A program made the translations under genes and the position numbers. From IMG/VR virus record IMGVR_UViG_3300044983_000295, positions 1 through 29,089 of that record: 29,089 bases of DNA. The stretch is one strand, 5' to 3'. The notes beneath the pieces were generated by a model, which did no database searches, was not told where the DNA came from, and saw only the letters and a program-made list of their open reading frames with translations. Origin of the DNA: a virus. Its lineage: Duplodnaviria; Caudoviricetes. Shown here in pieces: positions 208-29,087 of the stretch; position 1 is the first letter of the stretch, and each line of letters opens with the position of its first letter.

Positions 208-2325
208 TCACTGATAAGCCCCACCAAAATATTCGGCGGCTTGCAGCTTCAAATAGTCGTTCTCATCGTGATCCAGCTTAAGGATCCTAAACTGTTTTGC
301 GCTCCATCCAGGTTGGCTGCTGTGGGTCACTGAGATTATATCCTCCGGTTCCAGGGCCAGCCCCTTCACCGTAGTCGTAAATTCGCAGACGTAATTGGCG
401 TTCACTTCTTCGGCCAGGATCGTCATGGCCAGGAGCTGGGCTTGCTCCAGATTGGTTACCGCGGGGAATTTCAGGTTTTCATCAACAATGCCGTTATTCC
501 CGGCGCGATCGGCCCTGGCATCCTGATTGAGCTGGTCGTCCACTATCAGCTCGGTTTCGGAGTTTTGGCTGTCTTCTGAATGGTAGAATACGTGCAGACG
601 ATTGGCGCGATCGGCGCGTTCCACCAGCTCGGAGCTGAATGAGCCTTTCAGGATGTTGGTTTGGTCAAAGCTGAAGATGCTGGCCCCTGCTCTCCGCTCG
701 CGCACAACGAATTTGCCGCTCGAGATAAACAACGAACCATGACAGGCGTCCAGGATCGCGCGCATGTGCTCCTGAATCGGTTTGCGCGCATCAATCGCAT
801 AATTGGCTTCGTATCGGGGGCGGGTAATTGGGCCGTCTGCAGTCTGGATCACAATCTGTTCGTCGCACCTGGTGGCGAATGCGTCAGCCGCCGACCAGTC
901 GATTTTGTCCTCGGAAAAGCCTTTGCCGCGTAGCGGTTCGGTCAGGAGGTAAATGATCTGGGCGACGTTGTTCTGGGTCCAGGTCCGCGGGTAATAGTCG
1001 TAGGTGATGGTGATGGTGGATGCGGCGGCCGGGGCGGTGATGAATTCGACGTAACCCTTAAGTTTGTTCAGGCGATAGACGTCGCCGCTCTGATTGCCCG
1101 GCCCGATCTCCGTGAAGCTGGTTGCGCCGACGGTTAACGAGCTGATGCTGATGACGTCGGCATTGGCCAAGGCAAAGCGGACTTTTACGCCGTCGGCGCC
1201 GGGTAAATCCTCCGCGGCCGCTGTTGCGGTGATGAATCCATTTTCATCGAATTGCCGACAGAGGCGCCCTTTCACGCGGCAGATGAGATTGAAATTGCCC
1301 AGGACTTCGCCATTGGCCAGGCGAAAGACCAGGTAACCGCAGCCGCTCAGGCCATAGATGGGAAGTGTACGATCGTACCAGGCCCTGACGTCGACGGGCA
1401 CTGAGATTGCATGGGCTCCGTCATAGCGGCTGATGGATGGGACTGTGGAATCGCCGGAGATGCTGCCGGTAACGGCTTCGGCTTTGGTCTGGGCTGGATC
1501 CAGCCTGAATCCGATCACGGTGCCTGAATGGAAGCTCTGGTCTTCGTAGGATAAGCCGTTAATCTTGAGGCCGGTCAGGGTGTCGAAATCATCAAAGGGA
1601 GCTGAGCCGAGCACGACGATTTTGTTCCACATCTGCAGCGTCTTGTCAGTGATGCTTTGGGTGTTGTCGATAAGCTGGGAATAAATGGCATTTCCGGCGA
1701 CCACGACGCTGCCCAAAAGATCGGCCAATGGCAGTTCGGAGGAGGTCTGGGTAACGAGTGGGTTCTGGGAATATCTGCCTGTTTGATTGAGGAATCTGGG
1801 CAGTTTCGGTTTGGGCGTGAGCTGGGCGGCAATGAAGCTCAGCGCCAAGCCAATGAGCAGGGCGATTACCTGCACCCAGCCCAGATCCGGATTGTTCAGG
1901 GCCTGGCAAAGTTTATCAGCTTCTTCGGAGCCCAGTGCGCCCATGGGTTCAAGACCTAACCTCCGCAGCAGCTCCGGGCCGTTATCGATGCGGGATTCGC
2001 AGCCGGCTAAGATGTGCAGCAATCGACCATGGCCAATATGAATAGCCACGTGGCAGGGCCGGCCGGATTGTTTGTGGCGAAAGAATAGGATGTCGCCTGC
2101 GCGCCAGATCTGGTGAAGCATCGCGGAGCGGAGGATGCGATCGGCGCCGACTGTTGGGGGGCGATTAAAGATGACCAGCCCCTTTTGTTCCTGGAGCCAA
2201 AGCAGGGCCAAGCCGCGGCAGTCCAGGCCCGCGCGGGTCAGGCCGCCTTCTAGCCAGGGCAGATTGCAATAGGTTTCCAGGGTGGGATGAATGAAACCGA
2301 TGGGATTTATGGCTGTCTCGGTCAT
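208..2325 (-). CDS. Tail tip (central hub/megatron-like, Phage-tail_3-type) protein with N-terminal NlpC/P60 peptidase domain
   Basis: Start moved to ATG 2325, which overlaps the upstream TGA. N-terminus LPWLEGGLTRAGLDCRGL...GDILFF...HVAIHIGHGRLLH fits NlpC/P60 Cys-His-His. A hydrophobic stretch follows, then gpJ/megatron-like motifs (VKGRLC, NNVAQIIYLLT...G.G...IDW, GKFVV, EFTTTVKGLALEPEDIISVTH). Confidence 0.85.
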   Translation of the reverse strand: MTETAINPIGFIHPTLETYCNLPWLEGGLTRAGLDCRGLALLWLQEQKGLVIFNRPPTVGADRILRSAMLHQIWRAGDILFFRHKQSGRPCHVAIHIGHGRLLHILAGCESRIDNGPELLRRLGLEPMGALGSEEADKLCQALNNPDLGWVQVIALLIGLALSFIAAQLTPKPKLPRFLNQTGRYSQNPLVTQTSSELPLADLLGSVVVAGNAIYSQLIDNTQSITDKTLQMWNKIVVLGSAPFDDFDTLTGLKINGLSYEDQSFHSGTVIGFRLDPAQTKAEAVTGSISGDSTVPSISRYDGAHAISVPVDVRAWYDRTLPIYGLSGCGYLVFRLANGEVLGNFNLICRVKGRLCRQFDENGFITATAAAEDLPGADGVKVRFALANADVISISSLTVGATSFTEIGPGNQSGDVYRLNKLKGYVEFITAPAAASTITITYDYYPRTWTQNNVAQIIYLLTEPLRGKGFSEDKIDWSAADAFATRCDEQIVIQTADGPITRPRYEANYAIDARKPIQEHMRAILDACHGSLFISSGKFVVRERRAGASIFSFDQTNILKGSFSSELVERADRANRLHVFYHSEDSQNSETELIVDDQLNQDARADRAGNNGIVDENLKFPAVTNLEQAQLLAMTILAEEVNANYVCEFTTTVKGLALEPEDIISVTHSSQPGWSAKQFRILKLDHDENDYLKLQAAEYFGGAYQ

Positions 2326-4481
2326 CGAATGATGGCTTGATTGGGCAGATCCAGGAAGCCACCGAAGTTCTCCCAGTTTTGGCGCTCGGTGCAGCCGTTG
2401 AATGTGCGCGGGCAACCGCGCTCGATGACGAAGGTATCGCCGTTGGCGGGGGCCGCCGGCAGGGGTGGAACAATGATTTCGCCCGAGTAGCTTTCCAGGA
2501 CTGGGCGGCTGATGTTTCGAAGAGCGACCGTGGCGGTATTTGAATCGAATACGATTCGACCGTACGCCCACCAATTGCGGGAGAGTTCGAAGGCGCGGAT
2601 TTCATCGAACATCCCGAATGAAACGGCTTCGCCCCAACGGCTGCGCACACAGATCCGCCAAAAGCGTTTGGAGATGGATTTGGGCATGAGCACATCGAAG
2701 AGGCGCCCGCCCACGGGGCGCATCTCGAAATATGTCATTAACCGAAATGCACTGATGATCACCGAGGTGCCATTGGTGGTGATGTCTATTGCGGCTCCAT
2801 CGATTGTGGCGGCGACCTTGAAATCATTTGTGGTGACGTCGCGCGCGAAATAGCCGGTCTCAAAGGCGAGCCCCCCGGGCAGAGGCGATCCCGCGAATTC
2901 GATCGTATCCCAATTCTTGAGCCCATGCGCGGCGAGCGTGACTTTGTCGGTGGTGTTATCCACCGTCACGGCGGCTGAATTATGGATGAACGCGAAGATC
3001 TCAATGAGCCGAACCAGGTCTTCCGAGCGCGCATTTGCTCCCGAGGCAACGCGCCATACTTTCGGTGTGACGGCGCCGCCGAAGTCGAAATGAATAAAGG
3101 GTTCGAGCAGGGCGTTTTTCAGGCCGGCCTGAGCATCGGGGATTTGCCAGTAGCCCTGGACGTTTGTGCCCCAATCGCTGGCTTGTTGAAAGCGCCAGCC
3201 GTTGGCATTGCTGGCTTTGACGTTGCTGGCTGCATAATTGCCGACTGTAGAGATGTCCACGCCTGAGCCGGCGGAGCCAAATGTCGGGCGGGTTGTTCCA
3301 TCCGGATCGTCTGGAATCGTAGTGACGCTGAACCAATTCCCACCGTAAACATAAAGGTAATAGGTGACCCCGAACGTAATCCCGGAGGGCGCAACGGAGC
3401 CCGCGAATACCACCGGATCGCCAGTGATCAATCCAGCTTGCGCAATCGAGAATGACACTGTCCCGAATGCGCCGAGCTGAAAGGTCACAGGCACATTGAC
3501 CAGCGTGACCTTGGTACTCGAGGCGGTGATCGAACCATCAGGGATTTGATCCATGATATCTGTACCATAGATGGGATCCGAATCCATGAGGACGCTGGTG
3601 CCGTTGGTGGTGATATCGATCGCCGATCCGCCGAGTGTGGCGGCGACTTTGAAATCGTTCGTGGCTTTGTTGACGACGTAATAGGTCGTGCCGGCAGTCA
3701 GCCCCGTCGGCATCACTGCAGCCGAAAATCTGACGGTATCGTTGAGGCTCAGGAAATGGGCGGCGAGCGTGATTTTGTCCGTGGTGGCATCCACCGTCAC
3801 GGCCTGGCCAGTGTAACGATTGTGGGCAGTGTCTTCATTGAAATCGGCGGACTTAACGAGGGTCATACTCGAGCCTGAGCCGACGGTGCCTGCCTTATAG
3901 TTTTCCTCCAGATATCGAATGGCGGTGCATTGGTCGTCGGCCCAGCCGAATCTACAGTTCTGATGCATGTTCTCGCGCGGGGCGATCGAGCTGAGGTTGC
4001 CCAGGTCGTTTGAGCAGGCGAATTGGAGCTGCTCCAGCGTGATCTTCGCGGAATCGATCAGGCCGGAAAAGATGGTGACGCAATCATCGGCAGTGGGCAC
4101 GGCGATCGTAGTGCTGACTTTGCGGATGACGACGGGGGTGTCATACCAATCGACTGCCGCCAGCATCTGGGCCCATTCAGTGGTGACGTTGCTGGCGGCG
4201 ATCATGAGTTTGTCATTGGCCGTTTGAGAAGCCGCGCGAACGATCTCCCGCTTTATCGGCCAGTGATGGTACGTCGCGGCGTCGCCTTGGGTTCCGACGG
4301 GTTCGGGAGCGTGTTGCGGGGTGAAGAATGCGAGATCGCCGGGGAGTGTAGTGAGACGGATTGTGCTGATTGTGCCCCATGGAGTGGAGATGGCGGCCTT
4401 GAGATAGAAATCGTACAGCTCAGCCCAGCCGGATTGGTCGGCGTCTTTCTGCGTTATGAGGGGGGCTGTAAGGGTCTTCAT
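2322..4481 (-). CDS. Tail hub protein (DUF2163/BR0599-like, lambda gpL-like Cys motif) with inserted repeat and discoidin-like domains
   Basis: N-terminal AELYDF...IFSGLID; Cys motifs CRFGWADDQC and GCPRTFNGC...NWENFGGFLDLP at the C-terminus; lies between Dit and NlpC/P60. Confidence 0.85.
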   Translation of the reverse strand: MKTLTAPLITQKDADQSGWAELYDFYLKAAISTPWGTISTIRLTTLPGDLAFFTPQHAPEPVGTQGDAATYHHWPIKREIVRAASQTANDKLMIAASNVTTEWAQMLAAVDWYDTPVVIRKVSTTIAVPTADDCVTIFSGLIDSAKITLEQLQFACSNDLGNLSSIAPRENMHQNCRFGWADDQCTAIRYLEENYKAGTVGSGSSMTLVKSADFNEDTAHNRYTGQAVTVDATTDKITLAAHFLSLNDTVRFSAAVMPTGLTAGTTYYVVNKATNDFKVAATLGGSAIDITTNGTSVLMDSDPIYGTDIMDQIPDGSITASSTKVTLVNVPVTFQLGAFGTVSFSIAQAGLITGDPVVFAGSVAPSGITFGVTYYLYVYGGNWFSVTTIPDDPDGTTRPTFGSAGSGVDISTVGNYAASNVKASNANGWRFQQASDWGTNVQGYWQIPDAQAGLKNALLEPFIHFDFGGAVTPKVWRVASGANARSEDLVRLIEIFAFIHNSAAVTVDNTTDKVTLAAHGLKNWDTIEFAGSPLPGGLAFETGYFARDVTTNDFKVAATIDGAAIDITTNGTSVIISAFRLMTYFEMRPVGGRLFDVLMPKSISKRFWRICVRSRWGEAVSFGMFDEIRAFELSRNWWAYGRIVFDSNTATVALRNISRPVLESYSGEIIVPPLPAAPANGDTFVIERGCPRTFNGCTERQNWENFGGFLDLPNQAIIR

Positions 4482-10562: not shown

Positions 10563-10651
10563 GGCACTCGGATTAACACGAAGGGATAGACACGGATTTC
10601 ACGGATTTTCACTGATTGTTCCATCCGTGTTAATCCGTGAAATCCGTGTCT
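10563..10651. repeat. CACGGAT-family hairpin repeat (copy 3)
   Basis: agacacggatttcacggattttcactgat (10588-10616) / atccgtgttaatccgtgaaatccgtgtct (10623-10651), plus a degenerate arm at 10563-10582. Confidence 0.9.
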
Positions 10652-11229
10652 CATAGCTCGATGCGACGATAGGCGGCCAGAGTGGTTCTGACTTCCAGGA
10701 GGAATGGGAGGTTTTGCGGATCTTTCTGCAGCGCGCCGGTTTCTCCGGAGACGCTGGTTAGACCGAGCCGGTTCCGGTTCTGATACCAATAGGCGACCTG
10801 GTCTACGCAGGCGAGTTCCACTTCGGATGGCAACGAGAATTGGCCTGGATCGGTATTTGTCCCGGGCAGCACATAGCCGCCGTTGTAAAAGATGCGGCCT
10901 TGTTCGTTTGCCGTGCCCATCGCGCGGACCATGCTCACGATGCAATCCTTCCGGATGACGCATTCCCAATTGCTATAGGGAACCCAGCCGAGCAGCTCCT
11001 CCCGTTTCAGTTCGAACCCGAGGATCACTTCGATCGGATAACTGCGCGGGATGATCTCCATTTCATTCGCGCGAAATTCATAGAAGCCGCCCTCGACCCG
11101 GGCAAAGAGCCGGTTGCAATAAATGTCGAACATGCCGCTCGCCTTCACGATCAGGGACGTAAGGAAGACGTCGTCCACCGTGTCGGTGATCTTGAGGCGG
11201 TCTTTGACAGTTGTGAGCTGGGCGAGCAT
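10651..11229 (-). CDS. Head-tail connector (gp6-like adaptor)
   Basis: LTTVKDRLKITDTVDDVFLTSLI...YCNRLF...YNGGY...LPSEVELAC...AYWYQNR...LAAYRR. Confidence 0.85.
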   Translation of the reverse strand: MLAQLTTVKDRLKITDTVDDVFLTSLIVKASGMFDIYCNRLFARVEGGFYEFRANEMEIIPRSYPIEVILGFELKREELLGWVPYSNWECVIRKDCIVSMVRAMGTANEQGRIFYNGGYVLPGTNTDPGQFSLPSEVELACVDQVAYWYQNRNRLGLTSVSGETGALQKDPQNLPFLLEVRTTLAAYRRIEL

Positions 11230-12197
11230 TAGCGGTATGTTTTGCCGGACCAGGTGTTCGAGTAAGGAGATCGGCCGAAGCTGTTGGCGGCGTAAATGCG
11301 ATAGGTGTAACGGGTCCGGCTCTGGAGGTTGCTATCGATGAACCAGGTCTTACCGGCGCCGGTCAGACCGATCTCGCGATAGGCTGAGCCATTATCGGAG
11401 CGCTCGATGTGGAAAGCGTCTTCGTTGGCTGAATTGTCGCGCCAGTTCAAATCAATGCGGCTGGCTGAAATGACGTTGCCACTCAGATTCTGCGGCGCCG
11501 ACGGCGGCGTCTGGGTGGCCGGGTTGACGACGAATGCGGTGTTCGGGCCGTCTTGGTAGGTGCCGCCAATCTTGACGGCCAGATGAGCCTGCCAGATGCC
11601 TAGCGGGGCATCCGCGCGGACAGTCCAGGACGACGTCAGCGCTATGACGCCGCCGGGCGCGACGGTCTGCGCAGCCAGGCCCGGCGTCCAATCGTCAAAT
11701 GGGCCGCTCTGATTGCTTGCCCCCGGCTGCCTGGCCGTAAGCCAGCCTTCACTGATAGCGACCGGATTGGCTGTTCCATTGGTAACGTTCGCTGTGCCAG
11801 TGATCGTTTGACCAGGCGCGACATTCGTGGCGCTCAGGACAGGCGCAGAGATCGCGATGGTTCCAGATGGCGGCGGGGCCGGGGCCTTGTTTGTCCAGAT
11901 ATTGCTTGGCGGACCTTCCCCGATGTTGTTGAACGCCCGGACATAATAGCGCGTTTCGATGTTCGTATTCAGACCGACCGTCACGGACAACCCGGCGGTA
12001 TTGGTGATGGGACTGGCGAAGTTGTTCGTGCTGCAATAGACCCGGTAACCGGTGGGATTCCCCATAAGCGACGGTTCCCAGGACAGCTTGAGGGTTTGGG
12101 CTGAGGCGGTGCAGAGAGAGATTAAGAAGAAGAATACCGCCGCTTCACAGCGGCAGCTACAGGGCTTTCTCATTATTTGCTTTGGGGGCTGTTCCAT
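11229..12197 (-). CDS. Predicted exported protein with two fibronectin type III domains and a central Ig-like domain
   Basis: Signal-like AAVFFFLISLCTASA-Q (alternative start 12173); FN3 motifs LSWEP...GYRVY...YYVRAFN..GEGPPSN and PSAPQNL...IDLNWRDNS...YTYRIYAANSFGRSPYSN; stop overlaps the connector start. Confidence 0.8.
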   Translation of the reverse strand: MEQPPKQIMRKPCSCRCEAAVFFFLISLCTASAQTLKLSWEPSLMGNPTGYRVYCSTNNFASPITNTAGLSVTVGLNTNIETRYYVRAFNNIGEGPPSNIWTNKAPAPPPSGTIAISAPVLSATNVAPGQTITGTANVTNGTANPVAISEGWLTARQPGASNQSGPFDDWTPGLAAQTVAPGGVIALTSSWTVRADAPLGIWQAHLAVKIGGTYQDGPNTAFVVNPATQTPPSAPQNLSGNVISASRIDLNWRDNSANEDAFHIERSDNGSAYREIGLTGAGKTWFIDSNLQSRTRYTYRIYAANSFGRSPYSNTWSGKTYR

Positions 12198-12271
12198 GGT
12201 TAATTACGTGCGGAACCCCCGATTATGGTCGAGGGCTCCACACTAAACACAACAGTAACCAAACTACCGCT

Positions 12272-12925
12272 ATGTCTGCCAAAAAGCCTTCCATCCAAAT
12301 CGGGATCGTTCAAATCATTTCGATCATCGGCCTGCTCATCGCTCCGCGCGCAGCGGCCGCTGAATACACTCAAAGCATGGACGGTCAGGGCTTCGTGTTC
12401 ACCTTGACCGAAGATCCCAACTCCATGTCCGGCACGTTCAACAATTCGTGGGGCCCGGGATTGCATCTCGATCCTGCCGGAACAATGTTCTTCCCGTCCG
12501 GTGAACTTCATTTCGCTGGCGGGCTTGGCGACACACGTCGCGGTGTTCCCACCGGCACCGTCGGAGTCGGCTTTGGACTCCAGCCGTTTTACGACGGTTC
12601 GCCAGTGATTGATTTTGATTCCCCGAATCCGTTCACTGTCAAATTGGGAATCTCCGTGGGTGGAACCTATTTCAACGGACTCACGTTTGAACAAATGCAA
12701 ACGATTGACGAAGTAGTTGGCGACTTCCGTTATCAGGGATCTCTGTCGTATTCGTGCGCCTTCTTCGACTACGGCAATTTCGGAGCCGGTTCTTTCAGTT
12801 TCACGCGGACGCCCGTTGCCGATGCGCAGCCAGTTCCCGAGACTCTTCCGTCCGGCTCTCTGGCCGCGCTCGCTATTGTCGGGTTTGTTTTGCACTCGAT
12901 TACTGGCCGAATCCGATTGCGTTAA
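12272..12925 (+). CDS. PEP-CTERM-type (exosortase target) surface protein
   Basis: N-terminal signal peptide (IISIIGLLIAPRAAA-A); C-terminal VPET + hydrophobic segment + basic tail GRIRLR. Confidence 0.75.
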   Translation: MSAKKPSIQIGIVQIISIIGLLIAPRAAAAEYTQSMDGQGFVFTLTEDPNSMSGTFNNSWGPGLHLDPAGTMFFPSGELHFAGGLGDTRRGVPTGTVGVGFGLQPFYDGSPVIDFDSPNPFTVKLGISVGGTYFNGLTFEQMQTIDEVVGDFRYQGSLSYSCAFFDYGNFGAGSFSFTRTPVADAQPVPETLPSGSLAALAIVGFVLHSITGRIRLR

Positions 12926-14996
12926 GAACAACGACTGTTGGCGGAGGCGCAGCGGGAGTCGCGTTGGCTTCGCTGGAAAGTGCGCTCTCGCCGACACTGT
13001 TCACCGCGGAAACTTTGTAGAAATACTGCGTCCCGTTGGAGACTCCCGTATCAATATAGCTCAGCACGACACCGAGCGTCTGATAAAGCGTTTCGGTTCC
13101 GGTGCTCGTGCTCCGGTAAACTTTGTAAGCCGTGATCGCGCTGCTCCCGCTGTCCGCAGGCGCGGTCCAATTGAGCGTGACCTGGGCATTGCCCGCTGTC
13201 CCTGAAAGGTTCTGCGGAGCGCTCGGAACCGTCGGGACCGCCGTCCCGTTTTCGAGTGGCCCCATGTCCGGCGCTGTGGAATTAAACGGCCACGCAGAAG
13301 TTGAATCGTTGAAGTTGGTTAGAACGACGCCTTTGTTGATGGCCGGAGAGTTGTCAGGAATCGCTCCGGTGAGGTAGCTCGACACCAACGCATCTCCATC
13401 AAGGCCGTGAGCCTCTTGTCCGGTTCCAGTTCTGAAAGCTGCAACGGTTGCATAATCTGTCGTTGCTGGATAATTCCAATGATAGACCACTGTTCCAGCC
13501 GCCGAGCGGTGAATGTCGTAATCGAACGAATTTGTGGCTCCAGGTCCGGTGAGGTAAATCGTATTCCCCTTTGCCTCCATGATGTTGTTCCGAAAAATGT
13601 TGCAAAGTGAATTTGGCGCTCCTCCATCCTCTCCTGATGCGTCAATGCAACAGACGGTCGAGTTGTAGGAAGAAAGCAGGTTGTGAAAAATGAAGCACGG
13701 CCCTTCGGAGGCGTTCCCGCACTTCAAAACTGTCGCGTTGGTGTAGCTGCAGACGTTCCTGAACACGTAGGTCGGTCCGTAATAAATCGGCGCGATGCTG
13801 ATGCAGGAACCTTCTTCCTGGCCATTTGAATTATGGACGAGTCCAGATTTCCGGCTAACTACGTTCCCCCAAATTCGCACGTTATATCCAGCTCCGTCCG
13901 CCTCGATTCCGTCGTCACCTCCGTTCCGAATCACGTTCCTGCTGATGTCGCAGTTGTGCATCCCGTTATCGTGTCCGTATTTTCCGCTGCCACCGATGCT
14001 GTCCCAACCGCAGTTGGTGATGGTGTTGTCGGACATGACAACCGTGTCCGCTATTCCGCCGTCGCCGAAGCAGATCGCGTGGGTATTTGTTCCCGGCTCC
14101 CATCCGGTGAGATTGGCAAGGTAATTGGTCAGGATGTAAATGTTGGTGACATTGAGAACGTGGATGATCCCCGCGTCGTCGCCGGGAACGCTGATGCTGG
14201 TGTCAAACGTGCAGTTCTGGATGAACACGTCATGAGCGGTCGAATCGTTCTGAATGTTGAACTTCTGCGCTGCCGAAAAGGTGAACCCGTCCAAAACAAC
14301 GTGATGGGCCTGCATCAAAATATTCTGGTTCACGGCCCCACCGCTGATGTTCGGCGTCTGCCCTGCCGCCTTCTTCACGACTATCCAGTTATTCGCCGCT
14401 CCGGATTTTGTCCAGGTGAACGCGACATAATTCCCGTTGCTTACAACCGCTGTGTCTCCCGCGCTCGCATTCGCCAGAAAGTTCGTGATCGTTTTGTAAG
14501 GACTGCCCGACGTTCCTGATCCTTCGCTGCCCTGCGAGGCATCCACAAACTTCGTGACGCCGTTGGTCGTCTGAGCACCCGCGTAGGCAAGTGTCGTGGC
14601 GTTGTTCGTCGCCGTCGCGCTGCCGCCATTGGAGTCCGTCCAGATCGTGCGGATGTTGTAGGTCGTGTTCGTCGTCAGGCCGACGATTGAAACTCTAGCC
14701 TGCCGCAGATACGCATTGGCGAATCCGCCAACGTTCGTTCGCCGGTCAATGAACGGAAAGTAAGTCTCTTTCCAAGTGCTGCCGCCGTTCACGCGGTAGG
14801 AGACCTGAAACGTCGCGTTGCTGTTGTCGTCGCCGGTGTAGTTCGCGGCGACTCCGATACATTCGAAGGTAGGAGTCAGCGTGATCGTGCTAGGAGTGAT
14901 GCCGTTGGCCGCGCGTAGCGGCACGGAGAACAGAACCGACAACAAAAATAGAACGGTAATTTTGGTTTTCATGGCAAACAGAAAGATTCGGCTCAT
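12900..14996 (-). CDS. Predicted exported right-handed parallel beta-helix (pectin-lyase-like) protein with C-terminal FN3
   Basis: Signal KTKITVLFLLSVLFSVPLRA-A; TPTFECIG..GDDNSNA..VSYR N-domain; PYKTI...AGDTAVV..GNY; DDGIEADG..NVRIWGN beta-helix repeats; SPAINKG...APDMGPLE; terminal FN3. ATGA overlap at 14996, alternative start 14972. Confidence 0.85.
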   Translation of the reverse strand: MSRIFLFAMKTKITVLFLLSVLFSVPLRAANGITPSTITLTPTFECIGVAANYTGDDNSNATFQVSYRVNGGSTWKETYFPFIDRRTNVGGFANAYLRQARVSIVGLTTNTTYNIRTIWTDSNGGSATATNNATTLAYAGAQTTNGVTKFVDASQGSEGSGTSGSPYKTITNFLANASAGDTAVVSNGNYVAFTWTKSGAANNWIVVKKAAGQTPNISGGAVNQNILMQAHHVVLDGFTFSAAQKFNIQNDSTAHDVFIQNCTFDTSISVPGDDAGIIHVLNVTNIYILTNYLANLTGWEPGTNTHAICFGDGGIADTVVMSDNTITNCGWDSIGGSGKYGHDNGMHNCDISRNVIRNGGDDGIEADGAGYNVRIWGNVVSRKSGLVHNSNGQEEGSCISIAPIYYGPTYVFRNVCSYTNATVLKCGNASEGPCFIFHNLLSSYNSTVCCIDASGEDGGAPNSLCNIFRNNIMEAKGNTIYLTGPGATNSFDYDIHRSAAGTVVYHWNYPATTDYATVAAFRTGTGQEAHGLDGDALVSSYLTGAIPDNSPAINKGVVLTNFNDSTSAWPFNSTAPDMGPLENGTAVPTVPSAPQNLSGTAGNAQVTLNWTAPADSGSSAITAYKVYRSTSTGTETLYQTLGVVLSYIDTGVSNGTQYFYKVSAVNSVGESALSSEANATPAAPPPTVVVLNAIGFGQ

Positions 14997-17900
14997 GGCC
15001 AAGTTGGTGAAGTGTAAACCAATTTGTTAATGAATATGCTCCTTGCTGTCGTGTTGGTGTAGTTGTGAACTTTCACGACCCAAGCGCCTTTTTGTCCGGA
15101 GCGTGGCAGGTTTGACGAGTTTGTCAGGACAGCAGTTCCGTCTATGTAGAACACGTTTGAAGAACTGTTCGCCAAAATTCTGAACTGATGCCAGTTCGCG
15201 TCCAAATGAACGCCGGTATCGTTGGTCGCCGTCGTCGTTCCGTCCTTTGAATAGACCCACCAGTTTGTATCTCGCCGGAACTGCGGATCGATGTAGAACC
15301 CGGCATAGTCCCCGGCAAAGTTGTTGTTGGTGACTACTCCAAGCACGGCCGTTGAAATACCGCAGAAGAACCTTGTCGTGTTGGTCTGACTGATTTTGAG
15401 AGTAACGCGCAAGTCGTATGGCCGTCCGAAGTCTTTCGTCAACGTCCCTTCGATTCCAGCAACCCCTGTCGCGTTCGTTGCCGTTGCTCCGTCATATTGG
15501 ACATTCGGCGGAGTGGTGGCCGTTTCTACATTCTGACTTGTAGCGTTTTGCGTTACTGTCAAATCACCAGATGAAGTGCTGTTAATTCCAACCTGAGAAA
15601 CTATCGTCCCGGTCGCCTGAACCATTTCAAGTTTGTTCGTGATGAAATAATCACTCAACGCCGGAGCCGCTGCTGCCGCCGTTGCCGTCGCCGCTCCGCG
15701 CATGGTGAAATAATTCGTCCCGTCGCTGGCAACGATCACGCCTTGGTTCTGAGTCAGAGCCAATGTCGTCGCGCCGTCTATCTTCGATGTCGTCGGAGTC
15801 AACGTCGCCGTTCCCGCTCCCATGTTTTGAAAGGATACCCAAAAGCCCGATCCAAAATCGTTCGTGGCCTGTGGCAGCGTCACAGTGATGGCGGACGCAT
15901 TCGTGAGCGTAACCAAATCGCCCTTGTCAGTTTGCAGGACCGTATAGCTCGTTCCGGTCTGCCCGTTCACGGCCATGTCCGTCGCGCCAGTCGTGCCGAT
16001 CTTCTTGAGCGTGGCGTTGGCCTTGGTCTGCACTGACAGTTGATAATAGAGTCCGGTATAGCGCCAGAACAGGCGCGTGACATTGGTGTTGCCAGGAATC
16101 GTGACGCCATCCACCAACGACTGATCCTCCATCGAATACGCCTGCACGCTCAGGTTCGTGACCACGATGTTCGTGGTCGCAGTGTTGGTCACGAAATAGT
16201 CCAGGAATGCTCCAGCAACCGGCGAGCCGCTGAACGTGATGCCGAAACTGGCATTGGTGCTGAAGTCATAACTCGGACCGGAACTCCAATTCAGAGTTGT
16301 CGTATTGTGGACCGGAGAAAAGGAGACCGGGCCGGTGAACGTTTGCGCCAAGGAAAACGTATTCGGCTCATCTTCGTATGCAAGCGCACTTGGCAACTTC
16401 GAGCGGGTGGTGATCCCGAGCGCATTCAAGTCATAATCGAATATCTGCCTCCACTCCGGTATCCCATCCGCGCCGCCGCCACCTAAGACAACATTCGTTT
16501 GCATTGTTACCGATCCGGCAACCGGCTGTCCTGATCCCTGCGATACGACCAACGCGCCGACCGGAAGATTCACGCGAAGCGGGACATTCGGGTCTTTGAC
16601 CAGCCGCGCATAGTTGGTTCCGTTGCGACGTTCGACTTCAATTTCGGAAATGGCGCCGATGGCTACGGTTGTTGCTGGCGGATTCGTCGTTCCAGTTTCA
16701 GACCACATCCAGTTTGTAGGCCAGACAGTCGAATAGATGTTCGTGGCCAATTCCATCATCAAACGAAATACCGTCCCATCGGTCTCGTTGGAAGTTGTCC
16801 AGGTGATGTTGGTTTCGGTGATGAGCCTGTAAAATCGGGTGGATGCTGCGTAATTGATATTCGTGCCGCTGCCGAGGTCCAGCCAAGCGAGCCGTTGAGA
16901 AGCGTTCGTGATCGTTTGTATTCCTGAGAACGTGTTTGCCTCGTCTTCATAGGCGAGCTCCGCTGGCAGCCTGGCGCGCGCCACTGTCCCGCTGGCCAGG
17001 TTCGATGCATTCAAATTGGTCAGGCCCGCGCCATTGCCTGAGATCGTGTTGCCCAGGTTGGTCAGCGCATTGATGCCGCTGAACGTGTTCGCCTCGTCTT
17101 CATAGGCGATCTCCGCTGGTAACCGGGCCCGCGCCACGGTTCCGCTGGCGATGTTGGATCCATTGAGATTGGTCAGGCCAGCGCCATTGCCTGAGATCGT
17201 GTTGCCCAGGTTGGTCAGCGCGTTGATGCCGCTGAACGTGTTTGCCTCGTCTTCATACGCGATCGCAGCCGGCAGTTTGCTGCGGGTTGTGATTCCGGAG
17301 GCGGCCACGTCCGCGTCCACGATCGTACCATCCACGATCTGAGACGAGGAGACATTGGTCACCACAGCGGTGATGTTCGTCCCTTCAGTCACGCTATAAA
17401 CCAAGTTGCTGTTGCTCTTGAAATTCGGGTTGCTGACGGATGCGCCGTCCACAAAGGCGGATCCGGCCCCTCCAGTCTGATCGTTGCAAACAACCCAGTT
17501 CGTCCCATTGAAACAGATCACCTGCAGCGCGCCGGCGCCATTGGTCTGGATCGCCGTGAGCGGGATTCCGGTTTGCGCGTTGGCCCCGTTGTAGAAATGA
17601 TTCGTGTTCCCATCCCCCTTTGGCATTAGGCCGTGAGCCGACGTCGTAGCGTTCGCCGTCGTGACGTCTGTAAGCGCCAGTTCACCTTCAGAAATGGACG
17701 GGCCGAGAAGCGACACATTACCCGATAACCGCGCATCAGGCACGGTGCCGCTGGCGATGTTCGATCCGTTCAGATTCGTCAGGCCCCCGCCATTGCCCGA
17801 GATCGTGTTGCCCAGATTCGTGAGCGCGTTGACGCCGCTGAAGATATTCGCTTCATCTTCGTAAGCGATCGCTGAAGGGAGTTTAGCCCTGTTGGTTATC

Positions 17901-19963
17901 GAAGGCAGATCCGATTCAATGAGGGTTATCCCTACCAGGTTTGTGTTGCCATCGGTTCCCAGTATGCGGACATTGGGTCCGACGGTGAGCGGCCGCACGT
18001 TCCCATTCAGTTCCAGAATGCCGCCCCTGGCGCGGAAATAATCAACCTGGAGGAAATTATCATAGAGATGCAGCGCGGGGCTGCCGGAGCTTTTGCCGAA
18101 AGACAAATAACTGTCTTCGTTGGTCTGATAAAGCTGAAGATTGTTTCCGTTTCCGCGTGTGCCACTGCCAATGTAAAGCCCATCGGCCTGGCCGGAAGCG
18201 CCCCCGATCGTGAGCCGCGACGGACCGGCTGCCGTGGGAGTTCCAAGCGTCAGGTTGCCTGTGCTCAAATCATAGAAGACATTCGTCGCAAAGCCCATTG
18301 CGCTCGAGCTGCTGGCATAGGGAATGAGTCCGGGTGTGTAAGGCCCGGTCTGACCGAAATGCAGATTGGTGCCGGACAGAACCATTCCGTTCCCCGCTCC
18401 CGCGCCGCCGCCGGCGCCAGTCTGCCAGCCCACAGAGGTACCGTTGAAACCCAGCACCTGGTTCGCTGCCGCGCCGTTCGTGGAGATCATGTTCGTCGAG
18501 ATCCGGCTGCTGGTCAGGATGCGGCTTCCGTCAGTCACGACAGGCAGCGATGGCGTGAGATTTGCGATTTGCAGGTCACCATTGGTCAAGGTGAGCACAT
18601 TGGGAGCGGACAGATAGACGCTCACGTCCGCGCTGTTGGTGCCAGTGCCGCCGAAATGGAGAAAGCCACTGTTTTGGATACGAAGATCACCAGCCAGGTC
18701 AACGGTATAGCTGGGAGTGAGTTCGCCACCCAAGCCGAGAAATCCCCATTTGGCCCAAACCGCCCGTGTTGTGTTGCCGCTACCAATCCGTAGTCGGTCT
18801 GAACTATCCATCCATATGAAGGATTGGTTGGTTTGCCCGCCAGCGGCATCCAGCCAATAGAGGTACCGATCGTTAGGGAAGGACATGATTGAACTGCCAG
18901 CCAGGCCCATATTGCGAACCCGGACCCCATTCGCATCAACGACCAGGCGATCGAGCGTGTAAGGATAAGTCGGCGCCGTCACCGCAAACGTGTCCGCGCT
19001 GAACCAGACATAAGGGCCTTGAGGACTCGCTGCGTTCGTATAGGGAACGAACACCTGCATCACGCGCCAGGTGATGTTCGTATCAGTGAAGCCAAAATCC
19101 AGGTTGTGCTCCATCTGATGGTAAGTGACCGCGTTAAGCTTGTTTTCGAAATCCAGCCGGATCCAACCATTGGTGTTCCCCGGGTAGCGTTGATAAGTGG
19201 TGGCTCGGTTCGTGGGATGCTGGTTGTAGGCAATGATGAGCATGTCATCGCGAACGCCCGTAAATGTGGCGCTCTTGACGCCGATACTGAATGGCTCGGC
19301 TTGGGACGGGAACAGGAGGTCTTTCTCAACGCCGAGCTTGGCCAGGCCGAAGCTGAGATCATAGAGGAAGTTTGTTGCGCCGCCAAAGACGGCCGCCCCG
19401 TTCCGGAACTGCATTTCAGTACTCAATCCGCCGGGATTGCCACCGGCGATCAATGTGCCCGGTTTCCATTTCTGCGTGCCGGCATCGAAGGCCAATGCCT
19501 GGCCGTCGACCGCTTCATGGACATTCAGGACGTCTGAAAGATTGGCGAGTGTGGCGCTGCTGGCGGGCGGTTGCTGATAAACGTAAGTCAGATTGTTGAC
19601 GGCCAGGTGCTGCAGGTTGTAGGTGCCGCCATCGTTCGGGACGGAGATGAGGATTGCGTTCTGGCCATCGGCCACGACGCGATAATTGCCCTGCTCGAGG
19701 TTTACGCTGAACACGCCGTTGGTGGCAGTAAGAGTGATTGTCCTGCGCGTGATCACCGCGCCGCCTTCGATCTGCGGATTGCTCAGCGGGAAAAAGGAGA
19801 TGATGGAAGTGTAGGGCGTCCCTTCCGGAGTGATGACCAGGCCGGAGATCGTTGCGGCCTGAACAAATGAAAATGGTAGGAAGAGTAATAGCGCGAGCAA
19901 CGGGAGCTGGCGGTCTCTCTTGATTGGCTGTGTGCCGCCCTGTGTGAAGAACGAATGCGCCAT
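14993..19963 (-). CDS. Giant fibre-like protein (~1650 aa) with N-terminal signal peptide; start uncertain (frame open to 20134)
   Basis: KRDRQLPLLALLLFLPFSFVQA-A, then a domain resembling the lambda Stf N-terminus, fibre motifs (LANLSDV..DGQALAFD..TQKWKP; PGGLSTEMQF; GNGAGLTNLNASNL..GTV..ARL), and a lectin-like C-terminus (WHQFRI...VFYIDG). Confidence 0.8.
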   Translation of the reverse strand: MAHSFFTQGGTQPIKRDRQLPLLALLLFLPFSFVQAATISGLVITPEGTPYTSIISFFPLSNPQIEGGAVITRRTITLTATNGVFSVNLEQGNYRVVADGQNAILISVPNDGGTYNLQHLAVNNLTYVYQQPPASSATLANLSDVLNVHEAVDGQALAFDAGTQKWKPGTLIAGGNPGGLSTEMQFRNGAAVFGGATNFLYDLSFGLAKLGVEKDLLFPSQAEPFSIGVKSATFTGVRDDMLIIAYNQHPTNRATTYQRYPGNTNGWIRLDFENKLNAVTYHQMEHNLDFGFTDTNITWRVMQVFVPYTNAASPQGPYVWFSADTFAVTAPTYPYTLDRLVVDANGVRVRNMGLAGSSIMSFPNDRYLYWLDAAGGQTNQSFIWMDSSDRLRIGSGNTTRAVWAKWGFLGLGGELTPSYTVDLAGDLRIQNSGFLHFGGTGTNSADVSVYLSAPNVLTLTNGDLQIANLTPSLPVVTDGSRILTSSRISTNMISTNGAAANQVLGFNGTSVGWQTGAGGGAGAGNGMVLSGTNLHFGQTGPYTPGLIPYASSSSAMGFATNVFYDLSTGNLTLGTPTAAGPSRLTIGGASGQADGLYIGSGTRGNGNNLQLYQTNEDSYLSFGKSSGSPALHLYDNFLQVDYFRARGGILELNGNVRPLTVGPNVRILGTDGNTNLVGITLIESDLPSITNRAKLPSAIAYEDEANIFSGVNALTNLGNTISGNGGGLTNLNGSNIASGTVPDARLSGNVSLLGPSISEGELALTDVTTANATTSAHGLMPKGDGNTNHFYNGANAQTGIPLTAIQTNGAGALQVICFNGTNWVVCNDQTGGAGSAFVDGASVSNPNFKSNSNLVYSVTEGTNITAVVTNVSSSQIVDGTIVDADVAASGITTRSKLPAAIAYEDEANTFSGINALTNLGNTISGNGAGLTNLNGSNIASGTVARARLPAEIAYEDEANTFSGINALTNLGNTISGNGAGLTNLNASNLASGTVARARLPAELAYEDEANTFSGIQTITNASQRLAWLDLGSGTNINYAASTRFYRLITETNITWTTSNETDGTVFRLMMELATNIYSTVWPTNWMWSETGTTNPPATTVAIGAISEIEVERRNGTNYARLVKDPNVPLRVNLPVGALVVSQGSGQPVAGSVTMQTNVVLGGGGADGIPEWRQIFDYDLNALGITTRSKLPSALAYEDEPNTFSLAQTFTGPVSFSPVHNTTTLNWSSGPSYDFSTNASFGITFSGSPVAGAFLDYFVTNTATTNIVVTNLSVQAYSMEDQSLVDGVTIPGNTNVTRLFWRYTGLYYQLSVQTKANATLKKIGTTGATDMAVNGQTGTSYTVLQTDKGDLVTLTNASAITVTLPQATNDFGSGFWVSFQNMGAGTATLTPTTSKIDGATTLALTQNQGVIVASDGTNYFTMRGAATATAAAAAPALSDYFITNKLEMVQATGTIVSQVGINSTSSGDLTVTQNATSQNVETATTPPNVQYDGATATNATGVAGIEGTLTKDFGRPYDLRVTLKISQTNTTRFFCGISTAVLGVVTNNNFAGDYAGFYIDPQFRRDTNWWVYSKDGTTTATNDTGVHLDANWHQFRILANSSSNVFYIDGTAVLTNSSNLPRSGQKGAWVVKVHNYTNTTARSIFINKLVYTSPTWP
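16925..17290 (-). repeat. Intragenic 153-bp (51-aa) tandem repeat; further dispersed copies near 17730-17895 and 16360-16410
   Basis: AYEDEANTFSGINALTNLGNTISGNGAGLTNLN(G/A)SN(I/L)ASGTVARARLPAE(I/L) twice plus a partial; five AYEDE(A/P)N motifs in total. Confidence 0.9.
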
Positions 19964-20154
19964 TCCGAAATGCCGCCGGGCGCGCAGGATCATCCGATGC
20001 CTGACCGCTTCCCGTGAGAAGTCAGTTTTGATCGGCGGATTTTCTTTGCGCAATTCGTGATTCATTTCAAGCAGCGGGACGGCGGCCCAATGCCTTAAGC
20101 CGCCGCCCGCGGTAACCGGCTCGCGCGGGACCAATCGCGGGGCCGGAAATTTCT

Positions 20155-20763
20155 CTATTGCGGTGCGGCTTTGTCGTAGTAGCCGGACGCACTATTGATT
20201 GCGGTGATGGTTGTGTTGCCGAATGTGAGCAGGCGCATCGGTTGTCGCAGCGGAGCGGCGAAGATGCATATGCCGTCCTTTCTCACTGTGGCCGCGCTGA
20301 CCAGGTTCGTGTGCAGGATGGCCATCCGATAGATCTTGTCCCCGGCTGCCAGGGCAGTGCCGAGCTGGCCGGTGAGGTTGATCGTGGTGCCGTTCGTCGA
20401 GTGACACGTCGCGCTGAACACCGTGTTGTCAGCTTTCTGGAATACGACGGTATCGTTCGCGACGATGTAACTGTTGCCAATGACGACGCAGTTCGTGGCC
20501 GAGCTCGATGCTGTGGCGTTGATCGTCGCGCCATACGTGCCCGCCTGCAGCTTGAGTATAGCGCCGGCGGTGTCATTGGTGACGTCGTAGGAAGTCAACC
20601 GGAAGATGGCATCCGTGTTTGCCGGGAAGATCACCTCGGCATTCGTCGCGCCATTGGCGCGCAACGACACGAAACCATAATTCAAGTTGAGCGTTTGGGC
20701 CTGAAGGCTGAAGGCCGAAGCGGCCAGAGCCAGCAGCGTGAGTAGTTTGTTTTTCGTAATCAT
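20155..20763 (-). CDS. Predicted exported beta-rich protein (202 aa) in the capsid-decoration gene position
   Basis: MITKNKLLTLLALAASAFSLQA-Q is a classic Sec/SPI signal; starts 38 bp after the capsid stop. Confidence 0.75.
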   Translation of the reverse strand: MITKNKLLTLLALAASAFSLQAQTLNLNYGFVSLRANGATNAEVIFPANTDAIFRLTSYDVTNDTAGAILKLQAGTYGATINATASSSATNCVVIGNSYIVANDTVVFQKADNTVFSATCHSTNGTTINLTGQLGTALAAGDKIYRMAILHTNLVSAATVRKDGICIFAAPLRQPMRLLTFGNTTITAINSASGYYDKAAPQ

Positions 20764-20766
20764 AAT

Positions 20767-20800
20767 GTTCTTTGCGTTCTTTGCGTTCTTTGCGGTTAAA
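20767..20800. repeat. Three tandem 9-bp units (gttctttgc)x3 followed by ggttaaa
   Basis: Fills nearly the entire spacer between the capsid gene and the next gene. Confidence 0.85.
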
Positions 20801-20801
20801 C

Positions 20802-22070
20802 TCAGGCTGCCGCTGTGATGAGCGATGCCGTCACGTCCACCTGGGCGTAATCGAAATCGATCTCCTCGATGAACCGGGTGGCGAGTTCGTCTGTGGCGAA
20901 ATAGACATCCGCACTGAAGTCCATCCGCGGTTGGCCATGCTCGCCGAACCACCAGAAGTCCATCGCGCCGAAGATCATTACCGTCTTGTCCGCGGCCGCG
21001 TCCGTGGTGAATACCTGCAGGACATCCGTCCAGATTACCGGGTAACCATCCAGGACAGCGGAGCCGTCCGGATTACGCCGATAGAAGTTCGGTTCGGATT
21101 GGGTGTTCTGATCTCCGAGCCGTGTTTCCCAGGTGCTGTCGAGGTAATAGGCCGAGCGCGCGGCGCTGAGGGCGGCTTTGTTTACCTTGGTGCGCAGAGC
21201 GCGAATGTCTGCCTTGGTGACGTCGCCAGGCGAAGTCTTGCCAGCAGCCAGGACGCGAGTCTTGGTGTTGTCGCGGGCGATCTTGTCCACGCCCTTGACG
21301 CTTTCGTAGGTGGCCGTGCCATCGGCGAGGAATCCCCAGGTGTCTTCGGCCCGGGCGAATTCCGTCGCGCCGTAACGAGCCAGGAACTGGCCCATGGGCA
21401 CGATGCTTTGTTCGTCGATCTCGCGCGGGACACGCACGATGCCGCCCAGCTTATGCGACTCGAGCGAGGCGAAATCGATCTGAGGCGAGAGTTCACCGAA
21501 TGCGACTGCCATGGCGATGCTGCCGAATGTCGGGCGTGTCTTGAACCGGGGCGGCTTGGCTGTGCCCATCCCGATCGGGAACGGGAACATGACCCGCCGC
21601 ACGACGCCGAACTCGCTGATCAAACTGCGGATCTCAGCGAAGTATTCGGTCGGGAGCGGGATATCCGTCGTGGTGAGTGTGGCTTTCTGTTCGATGCCAA
21701 GGATGCTCTTGGATTTGTCGAACAGTTTGGCGCGCACGCCGGCATCGAGCTGCTCGAGGCGGCCGCTGCGGGCGTTACCCTGGATGAATGCCGCCGCGAT
21801 GAATTCAGCGCATTCAACGCTGACGAAGCCGGGCCGGCGGATGCTGGCGCTCTGACTGCGGCGCTGCGGGAACGCGCGGCGCAACCCGTCGATTTCCTGT
21901 TGTGCTTTGGCCAGGGCATCGGCGTCTTTTTTGCGCTCATCCTCGCGGGCCTTCTCTTTGTCTTCGATCGCCTTCAGGCGATTGGCCTGGTCATCCTGTT
22001 TCTTGTTGATGCCATCGATGCCGCTCTTGATGTCTGTCAGAGCGGTTTTTAGTTCGGCAGTGTCTAGCAT
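20802..22070 (-). CDS. Major capsid protein, HK97 fold, with N-terminal coiled-coil delta domain (422 aa)
   Basis: RBS AAAGGAAAC-ATG; coiled-coil N-terminus; LPTEYFAEI, HKLGGIVRVPREIDEQS, FARAEDTWGFLADG, LDGYPV, MIFG motifs. Confidence 0.93.
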   Translation of the reverse strand: MLDTAELKTALTDIKSGIDGINKKQDDQANRLKAIEDKEKAREDERKKDADALAKAQQEIDGLRRAFPQRRSQSASIRRPGFVSVECAEFIAAAFIQGNARSGRLEQLDAGVRAKLFDKSKSILGIEQKATLTTTDIPLPTEYFAEIRSLISEFGVVRRVMFPFPIGMGTAKPPRFKTRPTFGSIAMAVAFGELSPQIDFASLESHKLGGIVRVPREIDEQSIVPMGQFLARYGATEFARAEDTWGFLADGTATYESVKGVDKIARDNTKTRVLAAGKTSPGDVTKADIRALRTKVNKAALSAARSAYYLDSTWETRLGDQNTQSEPNFYRRNPDGSAVLDGYPVIWTDVLQVFTTDAAADKTVMIFGAMDFWWFGEHGQPRMDFSADVYFATDELATRFIEEIDFDYAQVDVTASLITAAA

Positions 22071-27022: not shown

Positions 27023-27279
27023 CATTGCAATTCGCGCCTGGCCGCTTCGCCCAGGTCAGTGATGGCCCATTTGCGTTCGCCGAGTTTGCCGGTGATACCG
27101 AGGATCCATTTGAGTTGCTCCGCTTCTTTCAATGCCGCTTCGAAATCGGACATCGTCGCCATCGGATTAACCCGCCCGGCAATGGCGCCGAACAATTGCC
27201 ATTCCACAAACAAGCCGCCGCTCAAGTCAGCGAGCACCTGCAGAACGGCACGGATGATCTGGCGCTGGTGTTGGGTCAT
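27022..27279 (-). CDS. Small winged-helix-like protein (Mu gp26-like position)
   Basis: IIRAVLQVL...FEAALKEAEQLKWI...WAITDLG pattern; immediately upstream of the small terminase. Confidence 0.6.
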   Translation of the reverse strand: MTQHQRQIIRAVLQVLADLSGGLFVEWQLFGAIAGRVNPMATMSDFEAALKEAEQLKWILGITGKLGERKWAITDLGEAARRELQ

Positions 27280-27719
27280 TGTCCGATTTCTTTTCTGATG
27301 CTTTGTGTGTCGATGGCGGCCATATCCAGTTTGTTGAGGACCGCATGATTCGTGATGGCGGTTTCGATCACGCGCACAAGCGAAGAGGGGTCCAGATCAT
27401 CCTTGCCTTTGACGAGATAAGCCGAGGCGCCGTCATGGATGAGTTTCCTGATAAGGGCCGGATCCGAATCGCCCGAGATGACGACAACAACGGCCTGGGG
27501 CACTGCCTGGAAGAAATGCGCGAGGCTTTTGTCCCGGCTTGAATCGGGCAGGTTGAGATCGAGCAATACACAATCAATTTGATGACCGAGACACCAGGTG
27601 ATGCCATCCGTCAGCGTCCGGGCTTCGAACACCTCCCATACCGGGATGAGCCAGCGCCGGATGATCAGCCGGTAATCGGGATCGTCTTCGATAATCAGGA
27701 TTTGTCGGCCTTGGCGCAT
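27276..27719 (-). CDS. Stand-alone response regulator receiver protein
   Basis: ILIIEDD, DCVLLDLNLPD (phospho-acceptor Asp), VVVISG, GASAYLVKG; no output domain. Confidence 0.9.
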   Translation of the reverse strand: MRQGRQILIIEDDPDYRLIIRRWLIPVWEVFEARTLTDGITWCLGHQIDCVLLDLNLPDSSRDKSLAHFFQAVPQAVVVVISGDSDPALIRKLIHDGASAYLVKGKDDLDPSSLVRVIETAITNHAVLNKLDMAAIDTQSIRKEIGQ

Positions 27720-28634: not shown

Positions 28635-29087
28635 TCAAAACTTGTAGCTCAGCCCGAAGCGGATCTGGTCGTAATCCTCAGCCCGGCTTTCAAACACATG
28701 CCGGAATTCCGCAGTCGCCCCGACCCGCTCAGTCAACGCATAGGCGACACCAACGCCCACGTGTGTGTTCCAACGTTCCGTGTCCCAGTTCCGGCCGATA
28801 CCGGCCAACGCATACGGATTGAGTTTAATGTTGGTGGGGAAGCGCAGGACGAACGAGGCGCTCGAGTAATCAATGAACCCGCCACTGATCTCGCTAGCGG
28901 CATTGATCGTCGAGTCCAATTTCAACCCGACGTACTCGCCGAAGAACGTGTTGATGGCGATACCGGTGCCGAATGTGCCGCCGCCGAGCCCATGTTTGAG
29001 CAGGTCCTCAAATGGCCCGCGAGCGACTGAATAAGCGCCGTAAGTTTCGAGGGTGATCTCGGTGGGCTTAACTTTTTCGTAGAGCGA
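28635..29087 (-). CDS. Outer-membrane beta-barrel protein (5' truncated by the window edge)
   Basis: Frame is open to the edge; amphipathic strands, PYALAGIG, HVGVGVAY, terminal IRFGLSYKF beta-signal. Confidence 0.8.
   Translation of the reverse strand, partial: SLYEKVKPTEITLETYGAYSVARGPFEDLLKHGLGGGTFGTGIAINTFFGEYVGLKLDSTINAASEISGGFIDYSSASFVLRFPTNIKLNPYALAGIGRNWDTERWNTHVGVGVAYALTERVGATAEFRHVFESRAEDYDQIRFGLSYKF

Follow-up and report, generated by a model that had tools for sequence, protein, structure and literature searches.

The 29,089-nucleotide IMG/VR record IMGVR_UViG_3300044983_000295 (the whole stretch analyzed, hereafter the window) is an entire record of a virus (Duplodnaviria; Caudoviricetes) with a siphophage morphogenesis operon on its minus strand. 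Between the genes for its capsid and its head-tail adaptor lie two genes, here called A and B, whose products begin with signal-peptide-like leaders. It seems rather probable to us that they are a head decoration (A) and a fiber (B) that would be exported, mature in the periplasm and dock on the virion at lysis. According to the prevailing view, tailed-phage particles are completed inside the cytoplasm, and a gene that encodes a signal peptide is, to our knowledge, ruled out in virion annotation. The reading is built on the leaders of A and B and their conservation, the positions of the two genes, the fold of the B anchor domain, the barrel of A and an excess of the dipeptide threonine-asparagine (Thr-Asn) that tracks the leaders. 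The features concerned are:

20155-20763, minus strand: gene A, 202 residues, with a 22-residue signal-like leader; it starts 38 nucleotides past the stop of the capsid gene
20698-20763, minus strand: predicted signal peptide of A, ending before QTLNL
14993-19963, minus strand: gene B, fiber-like, 1656 residues, with a 36-residue leader, a fiber-anchor domain and repeated shaft units
19856-19963, minus strand: predicted signal peptide of B, ending before ATISG
19571-19855, minus strand: N-terminal domain of B, with the predicted fold of phage fiber-attachment domains (Bxb1 gp4/gp6, lambda Stf, neck-collar fibers)

The N-terminal domain of B, 95 residues long and placed directly after the leader, is common to leader-bearing proteins of related phages. 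When its model (predicted local distance difference test, pLDDT, 86) was compared by Foldseek with 350,542 PDB chains, the eight best matches were all virion fiber-attachment parts, with template modeling (TM) scores of 0.61-0.74: the Bxb1 tail tip (9d93 La, Ka and Lb), the Ur-lambda tail tip (9e7m Ta), the neck fiber 8keg and the tail fiber 8kec of A-1(L), the DEV collar 9cod and the XM1 neck 7kjk. A profile of the domain was also run against 3240 open reading frames (ORFs), a set that takes in 400 kb of a genome of the host order. Its top five hits were Bxb1 gp4 (E 0.0012), gp6 (E 0.0057) and three Stf-type fibers, and 8/8 known anchors fell within the top twelve; the roles of gp4 and gp6 are those given by their PDB and GenBank names. 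Like known fiber-attachment proteins (lambda Stf, PF08400/9e7m; Bxb1 gp4/gp6; the collars 8keg, 9cod and 7kjk), whose predicted fold the mature N-terminus of B shares, B-type proteins have variable, receptor-binding-like C-termini and genes placed among virion genes, and the profile match, weak as it is, ranks at the top. None of the six aligned Stf-type proteins has a leader, each beginning at Met1, whereas B and most of its homologs have a leader and the Thr-Asn excess.

Searching with a leaderless query of this domain retrieved 30 proteins, window B among them. With P0162 in place of window B, 30 proteins were scored, and in 28 a hydrophobic segment lies just upstream of the domain. Such a segment precedes the domain in 32/40 B homologs, while five of the 40 start at a Met next to it. 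The domain occurs in 36/401 genomes of the host order, and 29 of 33 regions around it (from 31 of these 36 genomes) contain virion genes. The B-type gene stands between capsid and adaptor, as in the window, in L153, L156 and L166, before the adaptor in L154, L157, L158 and L190, and between the tube and the tape measure or hub in L152, L155, L159-L164, L170 and L175. Its C-termini include a lectin, a GDSL esterase, an alpha-galactosidase, BNR and beta-helix types and a K1-lyase C-terminal tailspike domain. The shaft of window B carries the repeat AYEDE[AP]N at residues 700, 902, 953, 1004 and 1195. As a query, residues 20-520 of B retrieved one homolog besides B itself, the full-length protein had no match in five phage records, its body had none in the fetched loci except a 98% relative (L098), and Pfam, PHROGs and NCBIfam gave no match. 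We read B as a likely collar or side fiber, unlike known ones in having a leader, and would probably dock on the neck or tail collar.

In the model of A (pLDDT 86), the mature part is a jelly-roll in two pieces, about residues 28-75 and 149-200, between which a six-stranded barrel (76-148) is inserted. The Mystique tail-tube domain (9n71) is a match to the barrel (Z 13.4, root mean square deviation 1.3 over 73 residues), as are I-domains of capsids and the tail tips of Chi and JBD30; the Mystique tube and the P22 I-domain are barrels of the virion surface. The jelly-roll base resembles the HFTV1 turret (8qpg chain TD) and XepA of PBSX (6i56), both at Z of about 8; unlike these, A has a leader, and its family has one to five barrel repeats. 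In the available text of the HFTV1 preprint, the turret base is a hexamer seated on capsid hexamers and the PBSX protein is named as its sole probable homolog (10.1101/2024.12.09.627619); the term "signal peptide" is absent from this preprint. Foldseek with the whole protein gave only mixed, low-TM matches because of the inserted barrel. The nearest atlas clusters to A are 74-100% viral, and Pfam, PHROGs and NCBIfam hold no match for it. A is a candidate head decoration, and the capsid is its likely docking site.

In all twelve close homologs of A the leader diverges and the mature start behind it is conserved. By profile the family comprises 592 clusters at E<=0.001; among the best 150 of these, the rule described below finds a leader in 128, while 5 are without a Met start and 17 went uncalled, several of the latter being truncated or N-terminally extended. 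Family lengths of about 190, 340 and 490 residues correspond to 1, 3 and 5 copies of the internal (barrel) repeat. A occurs in 10/401 genomes of the host order, and in the A-bearing prophages with an upstream gene, which were found independently of one another, the gene directly before A encodes the capsid in 8/9 and a small-terminase-like protein in one; two of the eight capsids belong to other PHROG families (phrog_1357, phrog_283). Only 2 of 401 phylum-wide genomes matched, both with matches containing stops, which places A mainly in the host order or in phages of that order. Some A homologs, L072, P0056, P0082, P0111 and P0121 among them, carry a charged N-terminal extension; in L072 an internal signal-like segment stands between this extension and the mature domain. 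Ahead of the A start in the window (20764-20801) a short direct repeat, CGCAAAGAA, occurs three times, and no Shine-Dalgarno-like sequence was found in this interval.

What the preliminary description of this DNA had reported of the leaders was borne out. Four minus-strand ORFs, for A, B and two further genes C and D, are present at the claimed starts 20763, 19963, 14996 and 12197 between capsid and head-tail adaptor, the start/stop overlaps ATGA (14993-14996) and TAATG (11229) are both real, and all four genes begin with a basic-hydrophobic-small-X-small pattern followed by QTLNL (20697), ATISG (19855), ANGIT (14909) and QTLKL (12098). Leaders were called here by a home-made rule requiring a basic n-region, nine uncharged hydrophobic residues and small residues at -3 and -1, which called 19/20 exported and 0/34 cytoplasmic control proteins of E. 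coli K-12. In the window the rule is positive for A, B, C, D and one plus-strand gene only; 17 of the other 18 genes are negative and the tail terminator is borderline lipoprotein-like. These five leaders fit the predicted pattern of substrates of the Sec pathway and signal peptidase I. Across phage loci, leaders were called in 30/40 B-type proteins, 12/14 A proteins and 15/174 core virion proteins. The preliminary description had named three findings that would speak against it: leaders unpredicted or lost in homologs, true starts downstream of the hydrophobic segments, and a cassette that is a one-off host insertion absent from related phages. For A and B the opposite was found. Both families keep the leader pattern while its sequence diverges, no ATG lies between hydrophobic segment and mature domain in any of 36 B-type and 17 A-type loci (loci with the domain beginning <=12 residues from a stop were left out of this survey), and both families stand in the virion modules of many phages.

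Thr-Asn appears to be a second mark of export, independent of signal prediction. B contains 51 such dipeptides where 17 are expected (z 8.7), and A, C and D each have about twice the expectation (z about 2 each), while core virion proteins of the window are at expectation. The hub protein (2322-4481, minus strand), which has two inserted repeat domains (phrog_4711/9370), has neither leader nor Thr-Asn excess and serves as an internal control for beta-rich virion proteins. In the phage loci, observed and expected counts are 638 and 216 for B-type proteins (2.95), 70 and 22 for A (3.21), 193 and 182 for 174 core virion proteins (1.06) and 16 and 16.5 for capsids (0.97). The five leaderless B homologs, which start at Met, have 7 against 12.6 expected. 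In a set of 176 proteins of the A and B families, no dipeptide is more enriched than Thr-Asn (3.1-fold; 0.98 for Ser-Asn), with a small residue favored before it, Pro avoided after it and a hydrophobic residue favored at +2. In 400 kb of a genome of the host order (G001, which is not that of the actual host; regions L078-L097), secreted-type proteins again have Thr-Asn as their most enriched dipeptide, at 1.98 in leader-bearing proteins and 1.17 in leaderless soluble ones; in exported E. coli proteins the ratio is 0.54. Because the excess is found in both, the phage proteins share a compositional mark with the secreted proteins of the host group.

What does this mark signify? We take it for a modification site, with glycosylation the likeliest modification, and the enrichment in G001 is possibly that of an undescribed protein-modification motif; a bias of folding or stability may also account for it. 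The N-x-S/T sequon was rejected as the main signal, being barely enriched (988 vs 901 expected), and canonical N-glycosylation of such sequons by STT3/PglB does not fit, given how little they are enriched and how rare STT3 is.

How, then, could exported proteins become parts of a tailed virion? A and B would be transcribed late and exported through Sec, with likely cleavage of the leaders, and would fold in the periplasm, possibly with glycosylation at Thr-Asn sites, while head and tail would be built in the cytoplasm as a finished particle. Lysis would mix the two compartments, and B could then dock on the neck or tail collar and A on the capsid. Fibers and tailspikes can join finished particles outside cells, as the in vitro complementation of T4 and P22 illustrates. 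A wider and more tentative scheme, for tailed phages of Verrucomicrobiota, is one of two-compartment assembly, in which head and tail arise in the cytoplasm while fibers and head decoration proteins pass through Sec, are glycosylated by an undescribed host system at a small-Thr-Asn-x-hydrophobic motif and are added at lysis. In this scheme, and held just as tentatively, the heads of many relatives would be built on membrane-tethered capsid precursors.

Several observations weigh against periplasmic maturation and docking of A and B. Every leader call comes from the home-made rule, whose three-start form gives the 15/174 false calls among core virion proteins, and the profile of the A family contained the leader, which inflates the figure of 128/150. 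The jelly-roll of A matches at just Z 7-8 (XepA, HFTV1 turret, C1q, CUB), and no classical cement protein is among the structure matches listed for A. The fold of the B anchor is also found in pilins, which rank after the eight fiber-attachment parts; its link to known anchors in sequence is weak (hhalign probability 15-31%), and PF08400 stays below cut-off (E 0.093 in 1/9 members of the B domain). Five of 40 B homologs have no leader, and 4/33 B-homolog regions have no virion gene (L168, L169, L182, L191). The closest phage (L001/L100), which has the same gene order, contains A without B, C or D and carries leaderless genes after TipJ. Neither A nor B is present in 14/19 tail-less capsid loci with >=5 kb downstream. 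STT3 was found in 3/61 genomes of the host order (two over cut-off), some of which may be incomplete.

It is also conceivable, if rather less probable, that A and B are exported and never enter virions, having been redeployed as late-expressed envelope or secreted factors such as receptor decoys, superinfection blockers, adhesins, or capsule or biofilm depolymerases that aid the escape of progeny. The absence of A and B from many relatives would suit such a role, as would the resemblance of C and D to bacterial secreted proteins and the plus-strand gene, which with its PEP-CTERM-like tail points to the entry of host-surface cargo at this place. A free secreted enzyme, however, would need neither a fixed place nor an anchor, and so it counts against this alternative that A is retained immediately after the capsid gene, whichever of three PHROG families the capsid belongs to, and that B keeps its anchor domain while its C-terminus is swapped. 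Leaderless B homologs with the same anchor also occur in the virion modules of prophages (L171, L185, L186).

Two further explanations would keep A and B in the cytoplasm. In one, which we consider improbable, the leaders are uncleaved tethers at an assembly site on the inner membrane, and the domains stay cytoplasmic until a phage protease releases them. Membrane-tethered assembly is suggested by 24 of 65 related capsid ORFs, which have a hydrophobic N-terminus and no Thr-Asn excess (0.97). Each leader of A and B, however, is one short segment that has a basic N-region and, at a fixed position, a cleavage motif of small residues, and under the positive-inside rule such a leader sends the domain outward. 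Moreover, the Thr-Asn mark of A and B matches that of host secreted proteins, and the capsid of the window has no hydrophobic segment. The other explanation is an annotation artifact, with true starts downstream of the hydrophobic segments of ordinary cytoplasmic virion proteins. It can point to the leaderless B homologs, with Met next to the domain, and to GTG or TTG codons near the leader-domain junction in 3/36 B-type and 5/17 A-type loci. The lack of an intervening ATG in all of these loci makes this explanation unlikely; window B has no start codon of any kind between segment and domain, the leaders diverge in sequence and keep their pattern, and the Thr-Asn excess is confined to leader-bearing members. 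Taken together, we give the artifact very little credence.

The components of periplasmic maturation and docking are known, and the export route is undescribed in the literature searched. That search, outside of which lie most subscription papers and supplements, found neither exported fibers or decoration proteins in tailed phages nor a Thr-Asn motif. The nearest statement in print, as far as the accessible text goes, concerns Porphyromonas gingivalis prophages, which have Sec-signal genes, some with signals ending before Gln, and capsid proteins with signal-like N-termini (PMC10367356). The leaders of A and D likewise end before Gln, and many capsid relatives of the window phage have signal-like N-termini. 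In the accessible part of that work the function of the signal-peptide genes is not known; they are read as modifiers of the host outer membrane and are not linked to fiber anchors or decoration (PMC10367356). Elsewhere, again in the portions available, signal peptides concern host pili and a legend states that the P22 tailspike has none, needing no export (10.64898/2026.09.13.751334), a Sec-signal protein of a contractile injection system is a membrane protein and not a fiber (PMC13266070), and there is nothing on collars (PMC13252515). What is new here are the surveys of two families, the internal control of leaderless homologs and the Thr-Asn signature.

Virion proteins that pass through host export machinery are familiar from filamentous phages, in their coat proteins, and from archaeal viruses with host-glycosylated spikes. 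Those viruses assemble at the membrane or bud from it, whereas the window phage is of a lytic, tailed type with a cytoplasmic HK97 head and a siphotail. If periplasmic maturation of A and B is real, tailed phages possess an assembly step after lysis, their virions can bear host-made modifications relevant to host range and passage through capsules, and many secreted-looking prophage genes have been misread. The two-compartment scheme, if true, would mean a new route of tailed-phage morphogenesis together with a new bacterial protein-modification motif. The Thr-Asn signature suggests that secreted proteins of this bacterial order bear a modification that is as yet unstudied. Both the A family and the B anchor family include natural variants, leaderless or differing in repeat number, on which the idea can be tested directly.

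The remaining genes between capsid and adaptor, and these two bounding genes themselves, are:

20802-22070, minus strand: HK97-type major capsid protein, without a leader in the window phage
12900-14996, minus strand: gene C (690-698 residues, starts 14972 or 14996), with a leader, a probable right-handed beta-helix of Pel9A-like type, a C-terminal fibronectin III domain and 12 Cys
12272-12925, plus strand: a gene of 217 residues with a signal-like leader and, by eye, a PEP-CTERM-like tail
11229-12197, minus strand: gene D (314-322 residues, starts 12173 or 12197), with a leader and two fibronectin III domains; its stop overlaps the adaptor start
10651-11229, minus strand: head-tail adaptor, without a leader

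The second in-frame ATGs of C (14972) and D (12173) give shorter, more typical leaders, and the hydrophobic segment is kept from either start. The atlas feature scores of C are 0.93-0.98 to beta-helix/Pel9A-like clusters, which are 97-100% Bacteria, and C had no beta-helix match in Pfam. The fibronectin III parts of C and D are 40-56% identical to proteins from host genomes; their full-length relatives reach 25-31% identity, and no close homologs were found. C is likely a captured host-type polysaccharide enzyme, judged by its likeness to the bacterial Pel9A type, and may ride on the fiber or be released to loosen capsule or biofilm. C and D lie 702 nucleotides apart, with D head to head with the plus-strand gene, whose C-terminus has a VPE-hydrophobic-basic tail, a PEP-CTERM-like pattern by eye. 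This gene has the lowest GC content at third codon positions (0.61) of 12 genes measured and no match in Pfam, NCBIfam or PHROGs, and a promoter scan of 11000-13200 found none. Probably C, D and the plus-strand gene all represent secreted cargo of host type that was captured; they are not conserved here. Leader-bearing, Thr-Asn-rich lectin, peptidase or beta-helix genes stand directly behind the B-type gene in L002/L063, L064 and L010, and the slot behind B thus repeatedly takes secreted cargo.

The preliminary description had joined A to D into one cassette of possibly exported fiber and decoration proteins, and this holds in part. The genes and their positions are real, but the run is interrupted by the plus-strand gene between C and D, which that description had overlooked; the A and B families are kept in the virion modules of many phages, but the four-gene unit is not. 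Of the interpretations then offered, exported virion parts are favored by structure for B and less firmly for A, while C and D look like secreted proteins of a host type.

Eleven non-redundant loci have both this capsid type and a tube gene; A is present in 7 of them, a B-type gene in 8 and neither in 2. A and B are accessory and dispensable in relatives, since many capsid loci carry neither. In the 24 of 65 related capsid ORFs with hydrophobic N-termini (some loci being duplicated), a basic N-terminus and a hydrophobic stretch, often of two segments by eye, precede the scaffold coil; L002, L003, L007-L010, L013, L033-L036, L039, L040, L052-L054 and L060 are among them, and the window capsid and L001 lack it. 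Such N-termini suggest a possible membrane-tethered procapsid assembly in these relatives. Many elements consist of capsid, in some a B-type gene, and adaptor, and then end without tail genes (L011, L015-L025, L033, L037, L040-L042, L045, L047, L048, L053, L056, L059, L154, L156, L157, L166); they are possibly capsid-forming satellites or decayed prophages. In L050, L051, L052, L172, L173 and L180 the capsid gene (with A in most) is closely followed by two genes of Mu-like transposition type, by eye, and no tail module.

The minus-strand order of terminase, portal, prohead protease, HK97-type capsid, adaptor, neck, terminator, tube, tape measure, distal tail, hub and TipJ identifies the window phage as an HK97-type siphophage. 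No close viral relative was retrieved with TipJ. Relatives of the capsid, 49-68% identical, occur in 27 genome loci, 23 of which are titled Verrucomicrobiota or subgroups (including subdivision 3 and Limisphaerales); the others are Nitrospirales, Candidatus Limnocylindrales and Opitutaceae (one each) and one without an organism name. The Opitutaceae also belong to Verrucomicrobiota. As these relatives are mostly in Verrucomicrobiota genomes, the host is likely a bacterium of this phylum. Just upstream of the terminase genes lie, both on the minus strand, a gene for an outer-membrane beta-barrel (28635-29087) and one for a stand-alone response-regulator receiver (27276-27719), the latter also found at this place in L001/L100.

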